Shown here: positions 5,767-21,225 of the stretch, piece by piece
Layout: the number at the start of each line of letters is the position of its first letter
Position numbering within the stretch: the first letter of the stretch is position 1
Virus record (IMG/VR): IMGVR_UViG_3300031949_000139
Coordinates: 1 to 27,856 of that record
Source of the DNA: a virus
Lineage: Duplodnaviria > Caudoviricetes
Length of the DNA: 27,856 nucleotides
Strand: one strand, 5' to 3'
Made by a program: the position numbers and the translations under genes
Notes under the pieces: model-generated
Told to the model about the DNA's origin: nothing
The model's database searches: none
The model's input: the letters and a program-made list of their open reading frames with translations, nothing else

Positions 5767-6031
5767 GGATAATTCTCCTTATCTCATATTTAGACATCTT
5801 ATTCTTATATTTACCTCTAGTCCAGTAAATGTAAGTCACGTAAGGAAACCTGTTTCGTTCCTGCATAAGAAGTTTTTTGAGTAACCTCTTAGACCTAAAT
5901 TGAGAATGTACCCATGTATCAAAGATAAAGCAGTAATCCCCATATTTAGTAAAATCGCCTTTGACATCTACAATACTATACTCAGCATAAGCGATTATCT
6001 TCCCATCGGTATCAAATAGCTTGGCTATCAT
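5708..6031 (-). CDS. GNAT-like small protein
   Basis: DGKIIAY..FIFDTWVHSQFRSKRLLKKLL resembles GNAT motif A (V.P.xR..G). It sits where podoviruses often carry an acetyltransferase-fold gene before ejection proteins. Confidence 0.5.
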   Translation of the reverse strand: MIAKLFDTDGKIIAYAEYSIVDVKGDFTKYGDYCFIFDTWVHSQFRSKRLLKKLLMQERNRFPYVTYIYWTRGKYKNKMSKYEIRRIIHGRKSTTTADSTACNAIND

Positions 6032-6965
6032 GAAAAGCCTTCACAATCTCCTCAGCATTAAAAGCCTTCATACACTTTACTCCATGTATGCAATCCCACA
6101 AAGCTCCATGTGGCTGGACATCAAACAAATAGCTATTCGGTCGATGACAATAGGGTGTAGGACAATCTTCTTTAGTAATGTTAATGTGCTTATCATAACC
6201 TAGGCACTTGGGAGATGTACCACCCCAGCATACTACGCCTTTCCTATTGAGTATCGGACTTGCTGCAGCATGTTGTAAGAAGCTATCAATCCCGATAAAA
6301 CCGTCTGCCCATTTTAGAAGAGCCATAATACTTCTAACAGGGTAAAATACCTTTTCAGCCTTCTTCATCTTAGGGAAGTTTTCATGGCCTATGTCCTTAA
6401 TAATATAGCCCTCTCCTACTAGCTTATCGATAACATCCTGAGCCACAGAAACGGGTAGACTTCTACGATACATAGTAGCTATGGCTTTCTTAAGGTCTAG
6501 CTCTGTTTTACTTTCAGGTATCTTACCACCTATCCACTGAAACAGGATAATACCTTTGCTACCTCTTTCCTTATTTATGTAGAGCTGTGCTGACTCCAAC
6601 TCATTCTCTAAGAAGTATAAGTCAGGATAAGGAGTAACTATTGGTACGCCTATCATGTCACACCAGGATTGTATTATATGCTTATTATTACTCAAGTACT
6701 CACAATCTAAATAAGGCTCTTGTTTAATAACATAGGTTTCTTTGTTAACATAATCCTCATAGAAGTATAGAGGGTTAACAAAGTTAAAGACTTTCCTGAC
6801 ATTAGGATTGTATAAGAAAACGTCAGGGTAACCAGTCATTACGATAATACTCTTATCCGGATGAGCTGTTTTAATGGCTTTAACTACTGCTGTAGAAGCT
6901 ATGGCTTTACCTACGCCACCCTCCTGTATAAAGATTATAGTTTTTACTCTATCCGGTATATTCAT
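6012..6965 (-). CDS. GT9-like (GT-B) glycosyltransferase, atypical, with Lys at the catalytic Asp position and a C-terminal 4-Cys motif
   Basis: EGGVGKAIAST..AIK..HPD..I.V....DVF.YNPNV N-terminal motif, FIGIDSFLQHAAA..GVVCWGGT.P..LGY C-terminal motif, and CPTPYC...DCIHGVKCM. Confidence 0.8.
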   Translation of the reverse strand: MNIPDRVKTIIFIQEGGVGKAIASTAVVKAIKTAHPDKSIIVMTGYPDVFLYNPNVRKVFNFVNPLYFYEDYVNKETYVIKQEPYLDCEYLSNNKHIIQSWCDMIGVPIVTPYPDLYFLENELESAQLYINKERGSKGIILFQWIGGKIPESKTELDLKKAIATMYRRSLPVSVAQDVIDKLVGEGYIIKDIGHENFPKMKKAEKVFYPVRSIMALLKWADGFIGIDSFLQHAAASPILNRKGVVCWGGTSPKCLGYDKHINITKEDCPTPYCHRPNSYLFDVQPHGALWDCIHGVKCMKAFNAEEIVKAFHDSQAI

Positions 6966-7264
6966 TTCTTACTCCTAAATTTAGCTACCTGCTGGTTAAT
7001 ATTCGTAGTGTCTACATCCACTGTAGATGTAACACCTGTACCTTGTACACTCCTAACGCTATTATCAACGCTTATGTTATCTCTGCTAAGCTTTAGTTCT
7101 TGAGCTAGTATTCTTGTCTGTAGTTCTAACTTCTTAAGCTCATGGGCCCTGGCTATCTCTTCGTCACGCCACTTACCTATTCGTTCCATCCTTGCATCCC
7201 ACTCCGCATCGGCAAAGACTAAGGAAGTAATAAATAATATAGGTATAACTAAAAATCTTTTCAT
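6962..7264 (-). CDS. secreted hypothetical protein (Sec signal peptide, coiled coil)
   Basis: MKRFLVIPILFITSLVFA|DAEW signal-like N-terminus. AGGAGGT RBS and ATGA overlap with the downstream GT9. Confidence 0.7.
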   Translation of the reverse strand: MKRFLVIPILFITSLVFADAEWDARMERIGKWRDEEIARAHELKKLELQTRILAQELKLSRDNISVDNSVRSVQGTGVTSTVDVDTTNINQQVAKFRSKK

Positions 7265-7272
7265 AACACCTC

Positions 7273-9573
7273 CTATGAATAGGCTATAGCTAGCCAGTTT
7301 AGCGTACCTGCAGGGTCTATTGTACAGTAAGCCCCGTAGGTATCTCTTGTACTACATATTGCACAGGATACACAACATCCTGCAGCACCCGATATTGAAC
7401 AATAACAAACTATCTGAGAAATAGTATAGACACATACTCTTGCACATGAGTCCCTTGCATCACATGCTATCCAGCCATAAGCATGATAGGCTACACATGT
7501 TCTATATGCATTTGTATAGGAACATACAGTCACTGGACCAAACTCAGCGTTACTAGCAGAGGACGTTATTTCACATGCTGGACCTGTAACACATACACAA
7601 GCTATAGCACAGTTGCCTGATGTAAAGGTTACGTACACTTGACCACAAGCAGAATAAACCAAACAAGAGCAGTAAACATTACCAGGGTCTGCTGTAAATG
7701 TAGAACAGGCAGCTTGAGTACAGCTACCAGGATTACCTGTTTGAACAAATACATCAACCCCTCCATTGCTAGCATTACAGGTGACACAGCAACAAGTTAT
7801 GGTTGCAGAGCTGATATCCGTAGCTGTCCAAGTTAAACATGCTTCACATACCATAATATCCCAGGTTTCTAAACAAGGAAATACTACAGCTGTACAATGG
7901 CTATTTGTAGCTTTTAATTCCAACTCACTCGCATGGGGCTGGCTATAGGCAAAGCAACAAGCGCACCAAGCTGTATCACCATTCTTCCTATAACAAACAG
8001 CATAACACTCTGTACCGTAATTATATAGACCACATGCGGCATTACACCATAGTTGGAATAAACTTCTAACACATATAGCACAGGTACATGCAGCCGAAGT
8101 CATACAAGCACCATACGCTGCATCCCTTGTACATTCAGCACCTGTGCTAGCTTCTAAAACCAAAGTAGCATGTACTACAAAACAATATCCGTAGCAGGTA
8201 GCACTGGTTATAAAGCACTCTGGAGCGTCATTGTATATACACCACCGTTGTGACTGAGCTTGGGTACAGTTATAGGCCTGAAGCTCCTTAACACTTACAA
8301 TAACTTGTGGCGATACAGTCCAACCTAATAACTCTACAGTACATCCAGTACCTACATTACCACTACCTATTCTTTTAACGTAGGGTACATCACCTAACTT
8401 GTCATGAAACTTTAAGGCACCTGCAGATAGGAAAGAGTAGTTACAGGCATCAGCTGGGTCTATCATACAAAAACCCGAACAGGTTAAGCTAACTACTAAG
8501 GCATCGTCAACATCATAGCCAAATAACCCCATGTTAGCACCCTTAACACAAATCTTCCCTTGAACCCTCAAGCCATTTGTAGGGTCATACGTCAAATAAG
8601 AGTTGGTATCTCCAATAGCTATACCATAGGCATCTGAACCGTAGCCTAAGAAGCCATTAAGATTGCCCATACGCATGCGTGTACAAATGGTAGACCAAGG
8701 AGAGCCTGCATGCGTATATACGTCTAAGTGAGGAGCATTCGAGTCCGAAGCGGACATGATTAACCCCCCGTCTCCAGAAAGGCCATAGTTCGTTACAGCT
8801 GTGCCCTTAGGCCACGCAGGATTGTTATTTGCAGCATATGTAGCAGCCAAGTCTCGAACCATGCAGTAGACGTTGCTCCCTAAAGCTATAGAAACACATA
8901 GCCATTCTTCACAAGAGCCTGCTCTAATTCTTAGTATATCACCCTCACTAAAATCTACCGCACCTGATAGAGTCATACATGAGGCGTCAGCTGCGGTCAT
9001 AGCAGCGTCAAGGATATCTGCATCATGGGCAATCAAAAGAGTACCTCCAACAGATGAGACTGTATCATACTCAAAAACGGTAGTACTAAACTTCCCCCTT
9101 GCATAGATATCCAAAAACTCTGCTTCACCAGTACAACTGATACAGAACCCTGTACCTAGAGCACCACTTACAAAACCTGAGGATTGGACATAATTTGAAA
9201 CAGTCAAACAACCAGTGTTTGCACAGATAGCACCTAAATTTGTAACACATACTTTGTCAGCTGTTACTGCTCCTGCTGCTAGTTTAGTAGTGGTAATAGA
9301 ACCTGCACAAACCTTTACAGCCGTAATAGCGTCAGTCTGTATATGGTCCGCTATTATTGAGTTGGCTGATATCTTAGGAGATGTTACAGCACAGGCTGCA
9401 ATTGTTCTAGCTATAATAGCATCTGTAGCAATATTATCCGAAGTTATAGTACATGCAGCCATCTCACATCCGTAGATTTGAGATAGTACCATACTGCTGA
9501 GGACCCCTTGAAGATATACAGGGTCCCACTTCTCACCATAGGGATAAACCGTTGTATATTGAACGCAAGACAT
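7273..9573 (-). CDS. cysteine-rich tail fibre/spike protein
   Basis: Directly follows the nozzle gene. N-terminal ITxDKL/AxAVTADKV-type fibre repeats, followed by beta-rich domains. About 66 Cys in 766 aa by manual count. Confidence 0.7.
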   Translation of the reverse strand: MSCVQYTTVYPYGEKWDPVYLQGVLSSMVLSQIYGCEMAACTITSDNIATDAIIARTIAACAVTSPKISANSIIADHIQTDAITAVKVCAGSITTTKLAAGAVTADKVCVTNLGAICANTGCLTVSNYVQSSGFVSGALGTGFCISCTGEAEFLDIYARGKFSTTVFEYDTVSSVGGTLLIAHDADILDAAMTAADASCMTLSGAVDFSEGDILRIRAGSCEEWLCVSIALGSNVYCMVRDLAATYAANNNPAWPKGTAVTNYGLSGDGGLIMSASDSNAPHLDVYTHAGSPWSTICTRMRMGNLNGFLGYGSDAYGIAIGDTNSYLTYDPTNGLRVQGKICVKGANMGLFGYDVDDALVVSLTCSGFCMIDPADACNYSFLSAGALKFHDKLGDVPYVKRIGSGNVGTGCTVELLGWTVSPQVIVSVKELQAYNCTQAQSQRWCIYNDAPECFITSATCYGYCFVVHATLVLEASTGAECTRDAAYGACMTSAACTCAICVRSLFQLWCNAACGLYNYGTECYAVCYRKNGDTAWCACCFAYSQPHASELELKATNSHCTAVVFPCLETWDIMVCEACLTWTATDISSATITCCCVTCNASNGGVDVFVQTGNPGSCTQAACSTFTADPGNVYCSCLVYSACGQVYVTFTSGNCAIACVCVTGPACEITSSASNAEFGPVTVCSYTNAYRTCVAYHAYGWIACDARDSCARVCVYTISQIVCYCSISGAAGCCVSCAICSTRDTYGAYCTIDPAGTLNWLAIAYS

Positions 9574-13328: not shown

Positions 13329-14408
13329 TTAGTTTGCAAAAACCATTTCGCCGTCTACAAATACAGCGTCATCGTCATAACTCACAGCATTTAGTTCTTT
13401 TATTAGAAGACTAGTTTCTAGTGCTGTTAAAGTTGTCGCATTAAAAACTAATGTCTGGTAAAGAGGGTCTGAACTTAACTCACCCCACATAAGAGCCTTA
13501 GCACGAGCAGTAGCCTTATCAGCTCTGTAGAATGTATCAATCATAAAAATATAACCCGTTGTTTCAAAATACCCAGAGTATGCACCTAAGAATAGACTGT
13601 TATCTCCAGTATGAGAATATCCAGCACTATATCCAACATAGGTACTCTCATAACTATTATTGCTATAACCAGAACCATTACCTAATGCAATAACCCCTGA
13701 GCCAGTAGATAGAGATAGCAATGCTTGAGCACCCATAGCCACGTTGTTACTACCAGTTGTAGTACTAGAACCTGCTGAAACCCCGATATATAAGTTATTT
13801 GTACACTCTGTTGCATTACCCCCAGCACCCATACCTATAAAAGTATTTGAAGAGCCTGTAGTTAAGTAACTACCAGCAACAAAACCTATACATGTATTAC
13901 CAGCACCATAGGTAACAGATGTACCAATACCACCCCCAATAAAGGTGTTCTGATTACCTGCCATAGTAAAATTACCAGTACCAAATCCTATAAAGATGTT
14001 AGCAAAGAATGCCCCAGAATTATTATATACTGTAAAATATTTATTGCCTCCTATCATATAACCATACGAGGCATCCGTTATATCTACACCTAAAGAGAAT
14101 ACTGGAGTACCGTTTATTACAGTCTGCGGAGATGTCTGGTCAAGAAGAAGAGAGCCACCACCACTAGCAGCCCAAGATAAATTACCAGCACCGTCATTCG
14201 TTAATGCACCAGCAGCATCTGCTGGGTAATCGGTTAAATCAGCAAATGCAACAGAGGTAAGGTATGTAGACGTGTCAATCCCTAACAAACCCGCCGTGAC
14301 TTTAAGTAAGCCTGTGTCAAACCCGGTAAGAGTTTGAGGGCTAGTCTGGTCAAGCTTGATATACCTCAAATCAGCTACTGCTATAGTAATCCCACCTGAT
14401 ATCTTCAT
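13329..14408 (-). CDS. tail fibre/spike-like protein with NTxIGxxAG beta-roll repeats
   Basis: About 9 repeats of roughly 14 aa (NTFIGGGIG, NTCIGFVAG, NTFIGMGAG, NLYIGVSAG, NVAMGAQAL, STYVGYSAG, SLFLGAYSG). LDQTSPQT occurs twice in the N-terminal region. Confidence 0.7.
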   Translation of the reverse strand: MKISGGITIAVADLRYIKLDQTSPQTLTGFDTGLLKVTAGLLGIDTSTYLTSVAFADLTDYPADAAGALTNDGAGNLSWAASGGGSLLLDQTSPQTVINGTPVFSLGVDITDASYGYMIGGNKYFTVYNNSGAFFANIFIGFGTGNFTMAGNQNTFIGGGIGTSVTYGAGNTCIGFVAGSYLTTGSSNTFIGMGAGGNATECTNNLYIGVSAGSSTTTGSNNVAMGAQALLSLSTGSGVIALGNGSGYSNNSYESTYVGYSAGYSHTGDNSLFLGAYSGYFETTGYIFMIDTFYRADKATARAKALMWGELSSDPLYQTLVFNATTLTALETSLLIKELNAVSYDDDAVFVDGEMVFAN

Positions 14409-15425: not shown

Positions 15426-16190
15426 TTAAACGTAAATCTTCTGGAGGACAATATGGATGTCCCACCAGCTCATAAAACGTTCACTGAAATTAGACCTACA
15501 CATAATGACCTGGAACCCTAGTTTTTGGGCCTCTCTCTTTATAGCCTCTTTATTCCACATTATATAGTGTTCTCTATGTTTCCAGTGAGCAAATCGTATT
15601 GGCGAAGTCTGATGTATAAAATCAACATCAGGAGTTGTGATAACTACTACGCCATCCTCCGGCATCAAAGCATAAGCTCTTTTTAATGCGCTTAATGGGT
15701 TTCTAAAATGCTCAAATACATGACCCATCCAAATAACATCATACTCATCCGTTTCTTTAAAGTGATGTGTTTCAAAATTACCTTTGATGTGGTATTTATC
15801 TGAAGGTCCATCTTTATTTATATCAATACCCCAACAAATCCATCCACGTTTACGGAGCCACTCCATTGGTCTTTCATAGCAGTATCCAACATCGAGCCAC
15901 CTGCGACCGTATGTTAACTCTTCAATAAGGTTGATATATGTTCGGTGTGTATGTATCGATCGGTCCTCAAACTCCTTAGCATCGGCTATACCATCATGAT
16001 ATGCCTTATCAGGGGTATATCCCTCAGGATATTTATCCTGAAAGATAATACCACAAGAACATTTAAAAAACAGACCTGTACCCTTATTGATAGTATCTGC
16101 ATCCTCAGTTACGTTATAGGCATACACAGTAGGTCTATGACAAATTGGACATGTACTAGGTGTTACGGTTAATGTGTTTTCGTTTTTCAT
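15426..16190 (-). CDS. class I SAM-dependent methyltransferase with N-terminal Zn-ribbon
   Basis: CPIC...CSCG Zn-ribbon, WLDVG motif I, WGIDIN, YDVIWMGHVFEHFRNP...L...LMPEDGVVVITTP. This is the type common in glycan-modification clusters. Confidence 0.85.
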   Translation of the reverse strand: MKNENTLTVTPSTCPICHRPTVYAYNVTEDADTINKGTGLFFKCSCGIIFQDKYPEGYTPDKAYHDGIADAKEFEDRSIHTHRTYINLIEELTYGRRWLDVGYCYERPMEWLRKRGWICWGIDINKDGPSDKYHIKGNFETHHFKETDEYDVIWMGHVFEHFRNPLSALKRAYALMPEDGVVVITTPDVDFIHQTSPIRFAHWKHREHYIMWNKEAIKREAQKLGFQVIMCRSNFSERFMSWWDIHIVLQKIYV

Positions 16191-16317
16191 AACTCTCACA
16201 ATAGGTTACTGTACCTTGAACAGCTAACAAATGGATGTTACCAGTATGTCTATTTATCCGCGACACACGGCACACTCTCCTGTCTCGAACGCACGTCGAG
16301 CACAAGCCATTTATCAT
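16156..16317 (-). CDS. possible small 4-Cys metal-binding protein
   Basis: MINGLCSTCVRDRRVC...TYCESY. It bridges the otherwise empty 16191-16249 gap but overlaps both neighbours. Confidence 0.4.
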   Translation of the reverse strand: MINGLCSTCVRDRRVCRVSRINRHTGNIHLLAVQGTVTYCESYEKRKHINRNT

Positions 16318-17272
16318 ATACTTCTTTAAATTTGCCATATACCTCCTTAGGGTCTATCCCATTAGCCATGCACCAACAAGCATGTGTGATAGGGTCTATA
16401 GGGCATTGGATACTATGGTCATATATCAACCGGAAGCACGGTGCACATTCACACTGAGCTTCAATAGAATAGTCATTCTCAAAATACTTAGTAATATTCT
16501 CTTTAGTTGAGTGACCAAGTAACCCAATCTTCGGAGTTGGAAAACATCCGGCAGCATGTAATACACCTGTATCAGGAGCTACAACTAAATTAGCAATCTT
16601 AGCCAAGGCCATGGATACTCGGATTGATATCTTACCACTGAGATTAGTGATATCCTTATCTACCAGGCTTTCTAGCAACTGACAAGACAAGTCACCAACC
16701 GTAATAATATGTACATTATCATGGTTTTTCAGGATTTCTCCTATTACATAATCCGTCCAAGGGTAGGCTTTGTTTTTACCTGAACCAGATAAACACCATA
16801 CTAAGTTAAACTTTCCAGGTCGTATATAGCTATAGGCTTCTTCCATCTCTTTTGGAGAGAAGAATAACTCACCCCTTTTTGTTAGCTCACCTAAGCCAGC
16901 CCACTTAGCCGTATGGTCATAGTAGTTAACATTACAACGTTCAAATCTTTCATACTTAGGGTAGATATACATAGGGCATTTAGGATGTAATGCTATAGAC
17001 ACCTCTAAAGACTCAGAGAAGTTTTTATAGTAAGTAGGTTTATACTGTTCTTTCTGGCGTTCCCACTCTTTATCTATGTCCTTAATAGGAACTGAGTCTG
17101 TTACCCTGTCAGTTATCTCATCAATGTTAGGGTTATTAGCAAACACCTCTCTACCACGCTCTGTGGTGTCAACTACTACATAGTACCCTTCTTCCTTTAG
17201 CTTCTTAAGGACTGGAGTTATTAAAAGGTTATCACCAAATGCACCGTATCTTACAATCAATGCCGTTTTCAT
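16250..17272 (-). CDS. GT9-family (heptosyltransferase-like) glycosyltransferase with C-terminal Cys motif
   Basis: IVRYGAFGDNLL..P.LK.LK, NNPNIDEI, VVAPDTGVLHAAG...PKIGL, CECAPCF...CP...CWCM. Start MKTAL at 17272 has an ATGA overlap and GGAG RBS. Confidence 0.9.
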   Translation of the reverse strand: MKTALIVRYGAFGDNLLITPVLKKLKEEGYYVVVDTTERGREVFANNPNIDEITDRVTDSVPIKDIDKEWERQKEQYKPTYYKNFSESLEVSIALHPKCPMYIYPKYERFERCNVNYYDHTAKWAGLGELTKRGELFFSPKEMEEAYSYIRPGKFNLVWCLSGSGKNKAYPWTDYVIGEILKNHDNVHIITVGDLSCQLLESLVDKDITNLSGKISIRVSMALAKIANLVVAPDTGVLHAAGCFPTPKIGLLGHSTKENITKYFENDYSIEAQCECAPCFRLIYDHSIQCPIDPITHACWCMANGIDPKEVYGKFKEVYDKWLVLDVRSRQESVPCVADK

Positions 17273-18048
17273 CGGTTGTATATCTCCAATCTTAGCCTTC
17301 CCCAATTATTATTCTCATAGTCTAGGGGCAGGGTTTCAAGAATAGCCTGCATGTCTCCACCACTAACTTTTCTCAGTAAAGCCTTCTGGTCATCCTGAGT
17401 ATTGACACCTGAGTGCTTAGTTGTAACCTCATGGATGTGGAATACCCTAGACTTAGGTATTAGAGCTATACGATAACCTGCTGAAATAGCTCTATAACAA
17501 AAGTCATTGTCTGAACAGTGATTTCTAAACCGCTTATCCCAAAGGCCTATCTCACGGATAACACTCGAACGCAGTATAGCTGAAGTAAGGCCAAACCATA
17601 CACAGTAGATGATGTCCTCTGTTAGCTCTTTCTCTGTGTAAGCATGCCATCCAAATAGTAGGTCAACTGCTACATTCTCTATGGTCAGAGGGTCCTTCTT
17701 TACTATCTTAGATGAGCCTGCTACAGCAATATCAGGATGTTCCTCCAAAGCATCAATCAATGGTTTAAGCCACCCTTTTTCAGGAAGCGTATCATTATTC
17801 AATGACATAACATACTTATACCTGTTATTGCACCAAATAATCCCTGTATTCATAGCTGCAGTAAAGCCCTTATTTTCCTTATGGGTTAGCACAGTTACTC
17901 GTTCATCCACATAGGGGTTAGCAGAACCATCATCAACTACAATAATATCTACATCCATCTCCGCATTCTTCAATACTTCTGTAACGCACTCCCTAGTCAT
18001 CTCAGGAAAGTTATACATCGGTATTATGATTGCTAACAGTTTCTCCAT
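17269..18048 (-). CDS. GT2-family glycosyltransferase
   Basis: IIIPMYN, IIVVDDGS, NKGFTAAMNTG, LNNDT (DxD-like), IGLWDKRF...SDNDFCYRA..AGY. Confidence 0.92.
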   Translation of the reverse strand: MEKLLAIIIPMYNFPEMTRECVTEVLKNAEMDVDIIVVDDGSANPYVDERVTVLTHKENKGFTAAMNTGIIWCNNRYKYVMSLNNDTLPEKGWLKPLIDALEEHPDIAVAGSSKIVKKDPLTIENVAVDLLFGWHAYTEKELTEDIIYCVWFGLTSAILRSSVIREIGLWDKRFRNHCSDNDFCYRAISAGYRIALIPKSRVFHIHEVTTKHSGVNTQDDQKALLRKVSGGDMQAILETLPLDYENNNWGRLRLEIYNR

Positions 18049-19285
18049 AATAGTTCTGCAGGGCTCCTCTCTGTCCACGGTTATAAAGAAAGTTTAGGAG
18101 ACTGTCCTTTAACTCTAAAATTTTAGCATGTGATAGAGTATCAGTCTCTACAACTAAACCTCCTTCGTTGTGACCGGCTATGTTATAGTAATTTCTAAAA
18201 TCCTTTGTAGTTATCACTATACCGTACTTCTCAGGGTCTTTCCATATAGCACAACCTGGTAGCGGTACAAATTGAAACAATGTATATTGGTCTGGGTCAG
18301 CTTCAAGCATAAAAGCCTTAGTCTCTTCAATTGTTTCCTCGGACTCCCCAGGGTTACCTATCATTAAGAAGGCTTTAGTTACTAGACCAGCTCTCTTAGC
18401 ATTCTTTATAGCTACGATATTCTTTTCTACAGTAGCGCCCTTGCCTATAATATCCAATATCTTCTGCGAACCTGACTCAACACCAAAAGTAATCTCCCTA
18501 CACCCTGAGTCATACAAAACTTGAAAATCCTCTAAGGTGTTATTTCGTATATCCCCATTACAACGATAAACTATATTTAGCTTCTGCAACTCTTTACACA
18601 GAGGGTAAAATCGTTTACGGTCTAAAGCAAAGGTGTCATCATAAAATATAAGAGCTCTAATACCATACTTATCAGTAATCTCCTTTACTTCTTCTATAAC
18701 ATAAGGGATACTAAAAGTCCTTACCTTATGCCCAAATACATCTTTGCAACAAAACGCACATGAATAAGGGCACCCACGACTTGTAGTAATTGATGTAGCT
18801 TTCTGACCTGCAACCTTACGCGTATATGCATGTATGTCTACTAAGTCCCTAGCAGGTCTTGGCAGAGCATCTAAGTTTGTTATCTGTGGTACTTTAACAA
18901 TAGCACTACCCTTATAGAAGTAGAACATAAATTCACCTTCACCACAGATTACATAGTCAAAATAGCCTTTCGTCTCTTCTGGTAGTGATGTAGGATGAGG
19001 CCCACCCACAACTGTTACACTATCAGGGTTATTCATCTTACAAATTGCATGAGCTTCCTTAGCTAAATGTAAGGAGGATGAGTATACAGTAATACCGTAA
19101 ATATCAGCTTGACCGATAGCCTCAGGCCAATCTTCTTTTTTAATAAAGGGTAAATCTACAATCTTTACATCAACATGATTAAATTTTCTCAGAGCAGAAG
19201 CAATGTACATTAAGCCTAACGGTGGGTCAAGCCGGTCGTCTAATGAATTAGGCTGTGGTAGATTGATTAGGGTTATCTTAGACAT
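18011..19285 (-). CDS. cobalamin-dependent (class B) radical SAM enzyme
   Basis: PPLGLMYIAS and VVGGPHPT B12-binding-domain motifs, SRGCPYSCAFC CxxxCxxC motif, DDTF, FGVESGSQKIL, FLMIGNPGE. Confidence 0.93.
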   Translation of the reverse strand: MSKITLINLPQPNSLDDRLDPPLGLMYIASALRKFNHVDVKIVDLPFIKKEDWPEAIGQADIYGITVYSSSLHLAKEAHAICKMNNPDSVTVVGGPHPTSLPEETKGYFDYVICGEGEFMFYFYKGSAIVKVPQITNLDALPRPARDLVDIHAYTRKVAGQKATSITTSRGCPYSCAFCCKDVFGHKVRTFSIPYVIEEVKEITDKYGIRALIFYDDTFALDRKRFYPLCKELQKLNIVYRCNGDIRNNTLEDFQVLYDSGCREITFGVESGSQKILDIIGKGATVEKNIVAIKNAKRAGLVTKAFLMIGNPGESEETIEETKAFMLEADPDQYTLFQFVPLPGCAIWKDPEKYGIVITTKDFRNYYNIAGHNEGGLVVETDTLSHAKILELKDSLLNFLYNRGQRGALQNYYGETVSNHNTDV

Positions 19286-20258
19286 ATACCCACCAATCCT
19301 CTAGTGTGTCTTGCTCATTGTAGCCATGGTAAACACGCTCAATACCGAATATTTCATCAACTGCCTCCTTTACGGAGGGTCTAAGGGCATAATCATAGTC
19401 ATGACCTGATATTATGCCACCCTTCTTAACTTTAGGTAACCAAGCAGCTATATCCGTTTTTACTGACTGATAGGAGTGGTCAGCGTCAATATATACAAAA
19501 TCCAAAGAACCATCTTGAAATTGCTCTGCTCCCTTAACGGAGTCAATGACATGAATGTATACACGCTCATTATTTTCAAATCTCTTTTCAACCATTCTTA
19601 AATGCTTACTTTGCCTTTGAGGCTCGTAGAAGTCTTTACATACAGCCCAAGCGTCTACCAAATGTAGCCTGCTTATACACAAGTTATCTATCATCAATTG
19701 TGCGTGTTCTCCCCGCATAACACCCACTTCAGCAACAACAATTTCCCTATCTCCAAAGTACTTCATTGCTGCCTGTGTAGCCTGCCTAGGCATAGCCTTT
19801 AATTTACCTATCATCACAATAGATTTCTGGGCATCCTTAGAACTAACATCAAATACCCGCTCCCTATACTTAATTGTAAACCCTAGCTTCTCCGCTAACG
19901 CACAAAAAGAGTCGATATCCCATATAATAGGTATCTCTCGTAATTTCCAATGCTTAAATTCATATATATTATCCCAGTTGATAAAGTAGCTGTCAGGCAG
20001 TATAAACTGGTAATCCTTACCTTCAGGTAATGTATGATATAGCTCTTTTAGCATGTCTACAGGGTTGTCATACTCTGACGACCTGGTATAGAAGATATTA
20101 TTGCAATTACAGAATGAGTACCCCATATCCGGATATATTTCATGGCGATTGCCTATCTCTCTGTCTCCACGGATAACCATATAATTAGACCGGCCACATA
20201 TAGGGCAAATCTGTAAGCACCAGTCTTCTGGTTTATCTAATTTTTGCTTTGTACTCAT
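19278..20258 (-). CDS. fusion of a Zn-ribbon/degenerate methyltransferase remnant and a Methyltransf_24-like SAM methyltransferase
   Basis: N-half CPICG...CNCN...FKHWKLRE...AEKLGF. C-half AEVGVMRGE, LVDAW, DFVYIDADHSY..VKTDI..WLPKVKKGGIISGHDY. Confidence 0.85.
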   Translation of the reverse strand: MSTKQKLDKPEDWCLQICPICGRSNYMVIRGDREIGNRHEIYPDMGYSFCNCNNIFYTRSSEYDNPVDMLKELYHTLPEGKDYQFILPDSYFINWDNIYEFKHWKLREIPIIWDIDSFCALAEKLGFTIKYRERVFDVSSKDAQKSIVMIGKLKAMPRQATQAAMKYFGDREIVVAEVGVMRGEHAQLMIDNLCISRLHLVDAWAVCKDFYEPQRQSKHLRMVEKRFENNERVYIHVIDSVKGAEQFQDGSLDFVYIDADHSYQSVKTDIAAWLPKVKKGGIISGHDYDYALRPSVKEAVDEIFGIERVYHGYNEQDTLEDWWVYV

Positions 20259-21225
20259 TATGGGCCTCTTCTACTTTAGACATGATTTCATCTTCGTTAA
20301 AAAATACACACGCTGGTAGGTCATCCTTTCGAGGACAACCGTAGTACTGGTAGGGTCCTTTATGGCATGGTGAGCATACAACTGGCGACTGAACCCAGTA
20401 AGCGTTCTTTGCATACTTGATATGGTTGTCCCAACTTGCAGCTGTCAGTAATTGCAAAGTTGGGGTATCCCAAGAATGAGCTACACAGGCTAACCCTGTT
20501 TCAGGGGATATAACCAAATCAAAATAAGCACACATCAAAGCAACCGTTCTAAAGTTCCATCTATCAACCTTACAAACAATACGGTCACCCTTAAATACTT
20601 GAAATAGACAACTCTCATCACCTGTTAAAATAACAAGAGCGTCAGGGTATTTCTCTAATATCTTCCGGCTAATAGACTCAGCTTGCTGAAAACGTTTATG
20701 CATGGAAGAACCTGACAGACATACTAGGATAGCCCAACCAGCATTATACTTTGTCTTAAGGTCTTGTACAGCTTGCTTAGCTTTCAGATGCTCTTCAGGT
20801 TTATAGTAGAGCTTGCCTCTTGTACCGAAATAGCTTTCAGGTAAACCTACAAACTGGGTCATCACATCATAGTAGTTCATCCTACCCAGGTGCTCACGTC
20901 TCCACGCAGTACTCCTATAATACTTGTTACAATTTTCTAAGCAGCAATATTCCCTCTCTATGGAGTAAACTAAATTAAAGAATAGGTCATAATTTTCTTT
21001 GCAATGCTCCCAGTTCTTTATCATCCTATTCTGCGTGAGCTTTGCAACATCAACAAATATCAGGTTATCTATATATGGGTTACCTTGTAGTATCTGGTAG
21101 CCCTGATAACCCGTTTCAAAATCTATACGGTCAATCTTATAGTGTTCTTTAATAAGTTGAGGCAGATGAGAACAATGCATTAAATCCCCGTAGGCTCCAA
21201 ATCGAGATATAAAACAAGTTTTCAT
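20233..21225 (-). CDS. GT9-family glycosyltransferase with C-terminal Cys motif
   Basis: ISRFGAYGDLMH, GNPYIDNL, CLSGSSMHK, VISPETGLACVA, CSPCH...CP...PACV. AGGAGG RBS. Confidence 0.88.
   Translation of the reverse strand: MKTCFISRFGAYGDLMHCSHLPQLIKEHYKIDRIDFETGYQGYQILQGNPYIDNLIFVDVAKLTQNRMIKNWEHCKENYDLFFNLVYSIEREYCCLENCNKYYRSTAWRREHLGRMNYYDVMTQFVGLPESYFGTRGKLYYKPEEHLKAKQAVQDLKTKYNAGWAILVCLSGSSMHKRFQQAESISRKILEKYPDALVILTGDESCLFQVFKGDRIVCKVDRWNFRTVALMCAYFDLVISPETGLACVAHSWDTPTLQLLTAASWDNHIKYAKNAYWVQSPVVCSPCHKGPYQYYGCPRKDDLPACVFFNEDEIMSKVEEAHNEYKAKIR

Follow-up and report, generated by a model that had tools for sequence, protein, structure and literature searches.

The DNA analysed here, referred to as the window, is the 27,856-nucleotide stretch at positions 1 to 27,856 of the IMG/VR virus record IMGVR_UViG_3300031949_000139; it is part of a tailed phage and is read on the minus strand. 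Its genes run in the order terminase, SU10-type portal, capsid, an enzyme block, adaptor, a nozzle-like protein, a 766-amino-acid (aa) protein dense in Cys (7273..9573), a 100-aa open reading frame (ORF; 6962..7264) and a 317-aa glycosyltransferase (GT; 6012..6965), followed by a GNAT-like ORF and three likely ejection proteins. The GT has the GT9 fold (GT-B) and belongs to a phage family with Lys or Arg at the catalytic Asp position of GT9 enzymes. An earlier note had proposed that this GT, two genes downstream of the Cys-rich protein, places sugars on the Cys thiols of that protein; the gene order is as described there, and each of the three genes is preceded by a purine-rich upstream site.

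The Cys-rich tip protein and the Lys-type glycosyltransferase

The 766-aa protein contains 66 Cys (8.6%), 46 of them in the last 340 aa (13.5%), and the density climbs toward the C-terminus. The other 23 proteins of the window average 1.25% Cys and the nine other predicted virion proteins 0.57%, about 15 times less than the 766-aa protein (binomial P about 1e-33). Of its Cys codons, 58 are TGT. No repeating motif was found in the Cys spacings, and both the count and the irregular placement given in the earlier note are upheld. The N-terminal fibre repeats and the middle domain are common to Cys-poor orthologues, and the C-terminal all-beta tip domain (residues 355-766; 7276..8511, minus strand) holds 50 Cys. 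In place of the original label of fibre, tail tip, central spike or central fibre is the preferable name, because the gene follows the nozzle gene, proteins related to its C-terminal domain occur as fusions with gpJ-type tail proteins, and Foldseek returned a weak match of the tip domain to the lambda tail tip (8k35_A; probability 1.00 but TMq 0.22). In gene order it presumably occupies the place of the podovirus needle or short fibre. The monomer model of the tip domain is middling (predicted local distance difference test, pLDDT, 70; predicted template modelling score, pTM, 0.44) and has no clear fold match. Neither Pfam nor NCBIfam returned a match for the whole protein, and no sequence match among solved structures was obtained with the tip-domain profile or with PSSM2_306.

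The GT model is confident (pLDDT 95), and its structural matches are the GT9 enzyme 3tov (Z 24.5, root-mean-square deviation (rmsd) 3.0, 276 residues aligned), TibC (Z 21.9), WaaF (Z 21.7) and WaaC (Z 20.7), other GT-B families reaching at most Z 11.7. The sequence falls below threshold for Pfam GT9 (PF01075) and NCBIfam, some family members passing PF01075, and the GT alone gave no sequence match among solved structures; the GT9 assignment made earlier rests on the fold. The two other GT9s of the window read GAFGD (16250-17305) and GAYGD (20233-21225), whereas this enzyme reads GGVGK at residues 16-20, with Lys20 encoded by AAA at 6906..6908 on the minus strand, all as first reported. In profile alignments, Lys20 faces the catalytic Asp of WaaF (VGD) and of a window Asp-type GT9, which bears out the position proposed for it; hhalign against the second window Asp-type GT9 gave a probability of only 0.6. 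The corresponding Asp13 is the proposed base of all lipopolysaccharide (LPS) heptosyltransferases, and its replacement by Ala is reported to lower activity 4688-fold (PMC5713226). With no Asp13 equivalent in the alignments, the window GT fails strict GT9 membership as judged from its sequence. Of 120 homologues examined for the base position, 6 were truncated and the 114 covered have Lys in 81 cases, Arg in 33 and Asp in none; among 146 covered representatives the residue is Lys in 130, Arg in 10 and Asp in two.

The donor half is conserved, as D227, S228, H232, W247 and R168 are kept in 137-148 of about 148 representatives (D227 in 144/148, H232 in 148/148). D227 (6285..6287, minus strand) and H232 belong to the D-S-x-x-x-H nucleotide-sugar-binding motif, aligned to DSGLMH of WaaF, in keeping with the heptosyltransferase donor-site Asp261, and R168 is taken, by its motif, as the counterpart of the donor-site Lys192. 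Because the donor half is intact while the base position holds Lys or Arg, the GT gives the impression of a functional transferase without the usual base, rather than of a decayed gene. Four Cys near its C-terminus (C268, C273, C292 and C298; 6072..6164, minus strand), a predicted TibC-like metal finger, are invariant in 86 close homologues and kept only partly in distant members. The family comprises 341 representatives at E<=1e-30, and its Atlas clusters are 93-100% viral. Within P0001-P0120, an acidic residue 15 mostly accompanies Lys20, and a small polar one Arg20, a pattern hinting at a local charge pair.

The known enzymes nearest in structure differ from the phage family at the same point. 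WaaC and WaaF share the fold (Z 20-22), the N-terminal beta1-loop-alpha1 motif and the D-S/T-x-x-x-H donor motif; they have D13 where the phage enzymes have Lys or Arg and act on LPS, and the phage family is almost wholly viral. TibC and AAH, which act on the adhesins TibA and AIDA-I, resemble the phage GT in the GT9-like GT-B fold (rmsd 3.0 over 270 aligned residues for TibC), in four Cys near the C-terminus, an iron finger in TibC and a predicted metal finger in the phage GT, and in being dedicated to an adjacent adhesive beta-rich protein, which is hyperglycosylated in TibA and AIDA-I (PMC4358343; PDB 4rap, 4rb4). In TibC the base is Asp110, assigned in that account by superposition on WaaC, and an N-terminal beta-barrel is present (PMC4358343); the phage GT has Lys or Arg there, and its partner is a virion protein enriched in Cys. 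The barrel of the bacterial autotransporter heptosyltransferases (BAHT) is absent from the window GT, whose model residues 1-317 align to TibC 71-389. Having neither barrel nor Asp base, the GT is not a BAHT member. The acceptor residue of TibC is Ser.

Coupling between the enzyme and Cys-rich proteins

Enzyme loci were counted after redundant ones with identical GTs had been removed, and only where 3 kb or more of upstream sequence was available; a protein in the fetched flank qualified as a Cys-rich neighbour if its Cys content reached 7% over 200 aa. Such neighbours occur at 37 of the 39 close-clade loci, 30 of the 76 distant-clade loci and none of the 37 Asp-type GT9 control loci, so the association that the earlier note expected of GK-type GT9s is present. 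The Cys-rich partner in the close clade is usually the gene immediately upstream, and the two misses still have Cys-enriched neighbours (15 Cys in 187 aa and 17 Cys in 349 aa). Nine close-clade partners are other proteins, unrelated to the window protein in Cys-masked BLAST, while those of the distant clade include UspA1-like beta-rolls, NSNFLG-type repeats, a leucine-rich repeat and glycine-rich adhesin-like proteins.

The fibre is the only consistent neighbour of close-clade GTs (48 loci). Distant-clade GTs are accompanied by sulfotransferase (52 loci) and adenylylsulfate (APS) kinase-like genes (19 loci), for example at L053:10864-11685 and L081:10864-11307, which possibly point to a sulfated virion glycan, and also by GT25 and methyltransferase fusions. 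In the cultured phages P-SSM2 (L560:4973-13510) and Sf-FS3 (L329:5949-17867), an Arg-type GT lies between proteins of about 10% Cys and a carbamoyltransferase gene together with heptose-activation genes, namely those for phosphoheptose isomerase, kinase and nucleotidyltransferase. Sulfotransferases, APS kinases, fusions and heptose-activation genes are neighbours as expected for an active glycan pathway. The heptose-activation and GT clusters of these two phages have long been annotated as LPS genes. Lys-type GTs fused to GT25, to an FkbM methyltransferase or to an unnamed domain are P0300, P0316, P0347, P0348, P0351 and P0367.

The same link was found when the search started from the fibre. 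A scan with the middle domain gave 80 loci, all Cys-poor (best window at most 3%), with a Lys-type GT in the flank of none; among 45 of these records searched whole, only two weak partial GT matches were found, both Asp-type. The complete close relative G001, which shares the enzyme block, adaptor and nozzle with the window, has a Cys-poor orthologue and gave no Lys-type GT match. All ten tip-domain loci are GT-bearing contigs, a 10/10 result that is not fully independent, as the scan used one pattern from an alignment built from GT-linked proteins. The UspA1-like fibre family was sampled with a Cys-neutral pattern, giving 80 records with at least five repeats from 151 loci (mostly fragments; duplicates merged; L354 and L366 left out), and a GT is present in 31 of the 49 Cys-bearing records (at least 1.5% Cys) versus one of the 31 Cys-poor ones (Fisher P 2e-8, kinship ignored). 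Among records at least 90% complete and searched whole, the figures are 1/1 and 0/5. These loci came from alignment-based scans; single-protein scans of viral contigs gave no locus for the GT and one for the fibre. The pair is thus a phage-specific enzyme-fibre module with a strong two-way Cys link, and this coupling is real and would be left unexplained even if the linkage were not to sulfur.

The placement of the Cys is informative as well. At the six variable positions of the 15-residue repeat, Cys makes up 9.5% in enzyme-linked fibres versus 0.1% in controls (about 95-fold), and at the five core positions 0.2% in enzyme-linked fibres. Ser and Thr are not raised in the GT-linked repeats (16.4/12.3% versus 16.0/14.7%). 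The variable positions align with residues that are often Lys, Glu or Arg in solved UspA1, which is consistent with their being exposed. In the window protein, the N-terminal Cys correspond to S, S, E, G, Q, A and S in the Cys-poor L001 orthologue, and middle-domain Cys columns in Cys-poor orthologues hold T (32%), N (17%), S (9%) and D (7%); most Cys are unconserved, and the earlier statement that they take polar S/T/D/N-type positions is borne out. By these alignments, Cys have evidently spread into the shared N-terminal and middle parts of the protein. Columns with Cys in the tip domain are likewise more polar (58% versus 44% polar residues), none of the 630 tip-domain Cys pairs shows notable covariation (best P 0.001), and tip-domain Cys counts have no clear even-number bias (17/29 even). 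A middle-domain tree computed with Cys masked places Cys-rich forms in about five places with weak support, and it was set aside as proof of repeated origin.

Candidate sulfur-linked glycosylation and its alternatives

For a thiol-selective transferase one would expect the base to be lost and exposed Cys to be gained, and since the GT and Cys-rich tip proteins travel together across unrelated phages, a sulfur-linked sugar is likely. From sequence and model comparisons, we estimate the probability of dense Cys S-glycosylation of the tail-tip protein by the adjacent GT at about 0.6. In this two-gene module of a Cys-studded tip protein and a GT9-fold transferase with Lys for the catalytic Asp, the GT would move sugar from a nucleotide-sugar onto many exposed Cys thiols of the tip. 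A thiol acceptor would need no general base, and Lys20 would lower the thiol pKa or steady the thiolate. Transfer would occur in the cytoplasm, before or during assembly, and the sugar coat, with its highest density distally, would protect the tip or alter its contact with the host surface. The heptose-activation genes beside the P-SSM2 and Sf-FS3 relatives point to ADP-heptose as a possible donor, which the host would supply here, heptose genes being absent from the window. For PtUGT1, a GT-B enzyme, O-transfer is reported to need a His-Asp dyad while S-transfer runs without a catalytic residue (PMC8819650). Its S-acceptor, a thiophenol of pKa 5.5, is more acidic than protein Cys, which leaves a plausible job for Lys20. 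A broader proposition is that a widespread phage family turned the heptosyltransferase scaffold into a base-free thiol-selective GT, that unrelated fibres evolved exposed Cys as sugar sites, and that the dense S-linked virion coat so formed, sulfated or carbamoylated in some phages, re-explains the LPS genes of P-SSM2; to this we give even odds.

Enzymes of the SunS type have a GT2/GT-A fold, unlike the GT-B/GT9 model of the window GT, and mycobacteriophage virion glycosylation uses different enzyme families. SunS and its relatives, the glycocin S-glycosyltransferases, likewise link sugar to Cys enzymatically, but at one or two sites of a small secreted bacteriocin peptide and not on a virion protein; apart from such bacteriocin sites, known S-glycosylation consists of stray GlcNAc sites (PMC9877059), and the modification is called rare (PMC11242366, PMC9877059). 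Mycobacteriophage GTs coat virion proteins (Freeman et al. 2023, as cited in PMC12619734 and PMC12801897), but there the glycans sit on the C-terminal ends of capsid and tail-tube proteins, and the citing accounts give no Cys linkage. A literature search, with most subscription journals outside it, found no account joining phage, virion, cysteine and S-glycosylation. The earlier statement that no phage system of this kind is described needs qualifying, as the S-glycosylated bacteriocin sublancin is prophage-encoded (PMC6391423), though not a virion protein.

The GT might instead O-glycosylate Ser, Thr or another hydroxyl of the fibre, with Glu83 (6717..6719, minus strand) as base and with the Cys enriched for a connected but distinct reason, for example post-lysis cross-linking of the glycosylated fibre. 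Glu83, which is absent from the earlier account, lies in a conserved E/D-P-Y motif that is invariant in the close clade and is E or D in 138/148 representatives; it could be a substitute base allowing O-glycosylation, or an acceptor-binding residue. TibC, a near-top structural match, O-heptosylates its adjacent adhesin, and tail disulfides are described in cyanophage Pam3 (PMC9942802), so that the premise of the earlier note that dozens of disulfides are unlikely in phage virions was too strong. However, Ser and Thr are flat in the GT-linked repeats where Cys is up about 95-fold, Asp-type GT9 loci have no Cys-rich neighbours, and the joint loss of Asp and gain of Cys would be left unexplained; we consider O-glycosylation unlikely, though the likeliest of the alternatives. 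Somewhat less likely is that the Cys form disulfides or bind metal and that the GT-fold protein serves fibre assembly without catalysis, as a chaperone or a metal- or thiol-handling factor. Chloroplast NDH subunit B1, which we take to be non-catalytic, has the GT9 fold (Z about 19) and also lacks the Asp, and the Pam3 disulfides, some conserved Cys columns and the four-Cys finger of the GT fit such a role; the near-invariant donor-site residues, the lack of standout covariation or even counts, the variable positions of the Cys in unrelated folds and the sugar-pathway neighbours do not.

That the GT modifies host LPS or another small acceptor, and lies near the fibre only through block exchange of receptor-related genes, appears improbable. 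The closest characterised GT9s act on the LPS core, and P-SSM2 offers a parallel, its PSSM2_307, a distant relative of the Arg type, being flanked by 36-Cys proteins and by heptose-activation genes; that cluster has been read as LPS synthesis for host-surface modification, in a description that leaves the Cys-rich neighbours unmentioned (PMC1079782). Modification of LPS would explain neither the Cys enrichment nor its spread into shared domains, and it conflicts with the fibre being the only consistent close-clade neighbour and with the absence of the Asp on which catalysis with LPS sugars depends. The excess of TGT codons might speak for an artefact of mutation or coding, but this reading is strongly disfavoured: same-strand genes are otherwise Cys-poor, core repeat positions are spared, the residues replaced are mostly T, N and D, each two base changes away, and cultured, annotated phages have the same enrichment.

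Several observations weigh against dense S-glycosylation, to which the conserved E/D83, the Pam3 disulfides and the acidity of the PtUGT1 acceptor also belong. The distant clade is looser, 46 of its 76 loci lying below 7% Cys; 30 of the 39 close-clade partners share one tip domain, that of the window protein, and the counts ignore kinship. Of the 387 tip-domain columns, 25 are at least 50% Cys and two at least 90%, and the more hydrophobic face carries 237 of the 574 strand Cys, so some tip Cys are probably structural. Among UspA1-like records, G091 is Cys-poor and has a GT, and 17 of the 32 Cys-rich records searched whole have none, all 17 being less than 40% complete. A close-clade GT in L033 (9926-10891, plus strand), beside a 55-Cys fibre, has a single in-frame TGA codon where Trp101 is conserved, as does L150, which would mean read-through, recoding or a recent break. 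The window itself contains no heptose-synthesis genes, and its second fibre-like protein (13329-14408, minus strand), with NTFIG-type repeats, has only two Cys. In other phages, repeats of this type next to the GT are studded with Cys; the enzyme would therefore be selective in its targets.

Distribution and neighbouring genes

Relatives of the GT occur in podo-, sipho- and myoviruses from groundwater, freshwater and the sea, including phages of Pelagibacter and Prochlorococcus. Cultured carriers are P-SSM2, S-SSM7, S-CAM1/3, Sf-FS3, HTVC111P/112P, Vibrio SBP1 and D505-type phages, and Aeromonas HJ05; among the six with flanks read, five have a neighbour with 8% Cys or more, counted over 200 aa or over the whole protein, and the HTVC111P fibre has only 12 Cys (1.5%). 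If the tip proteins are S-glycosylated, they would surpass every known case in density of S-glycosylation and be the first such case on a virus particle. The modification would influence how the host is recognised and how stable the virion is, the poor yield of such fibres in routine proteomics would be explained, and a Cys-selective protein glycosyltransferase would become available as a tool. Cultured carriers such as P-SSM2, Vibrio SBP1 and HTVC111P make the module directly testable.

The 100-aa ORF between fibre and GT (minus strand) has a hydrophobic, signal-peptide-like N-terminus, and its homologues directly adjoin the GT in L009, L103, L126, L130 and L163. It was rejected as a core part of the module, since few loci have a homologue beside the GT, and is accessory at most. 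The enzyme block (15426-21225, minus strand), between the capsid and tail genes, encodes the two Asp-type GT9s, a GT2, a B12 radical SAM protein and two methyltransferases; it is kept in G001, which is without the Lys-type GT, a GT9 of the block occurs in 47 viral loci, and the block may be a separate capsid-glycan pathway. Near another close-clade GT, L018:13591-16557 (plus strand) encodes a repeat protein with long Ser/Cys runs (SSSSCSSSSC), a candidate mucin-like acceptor.

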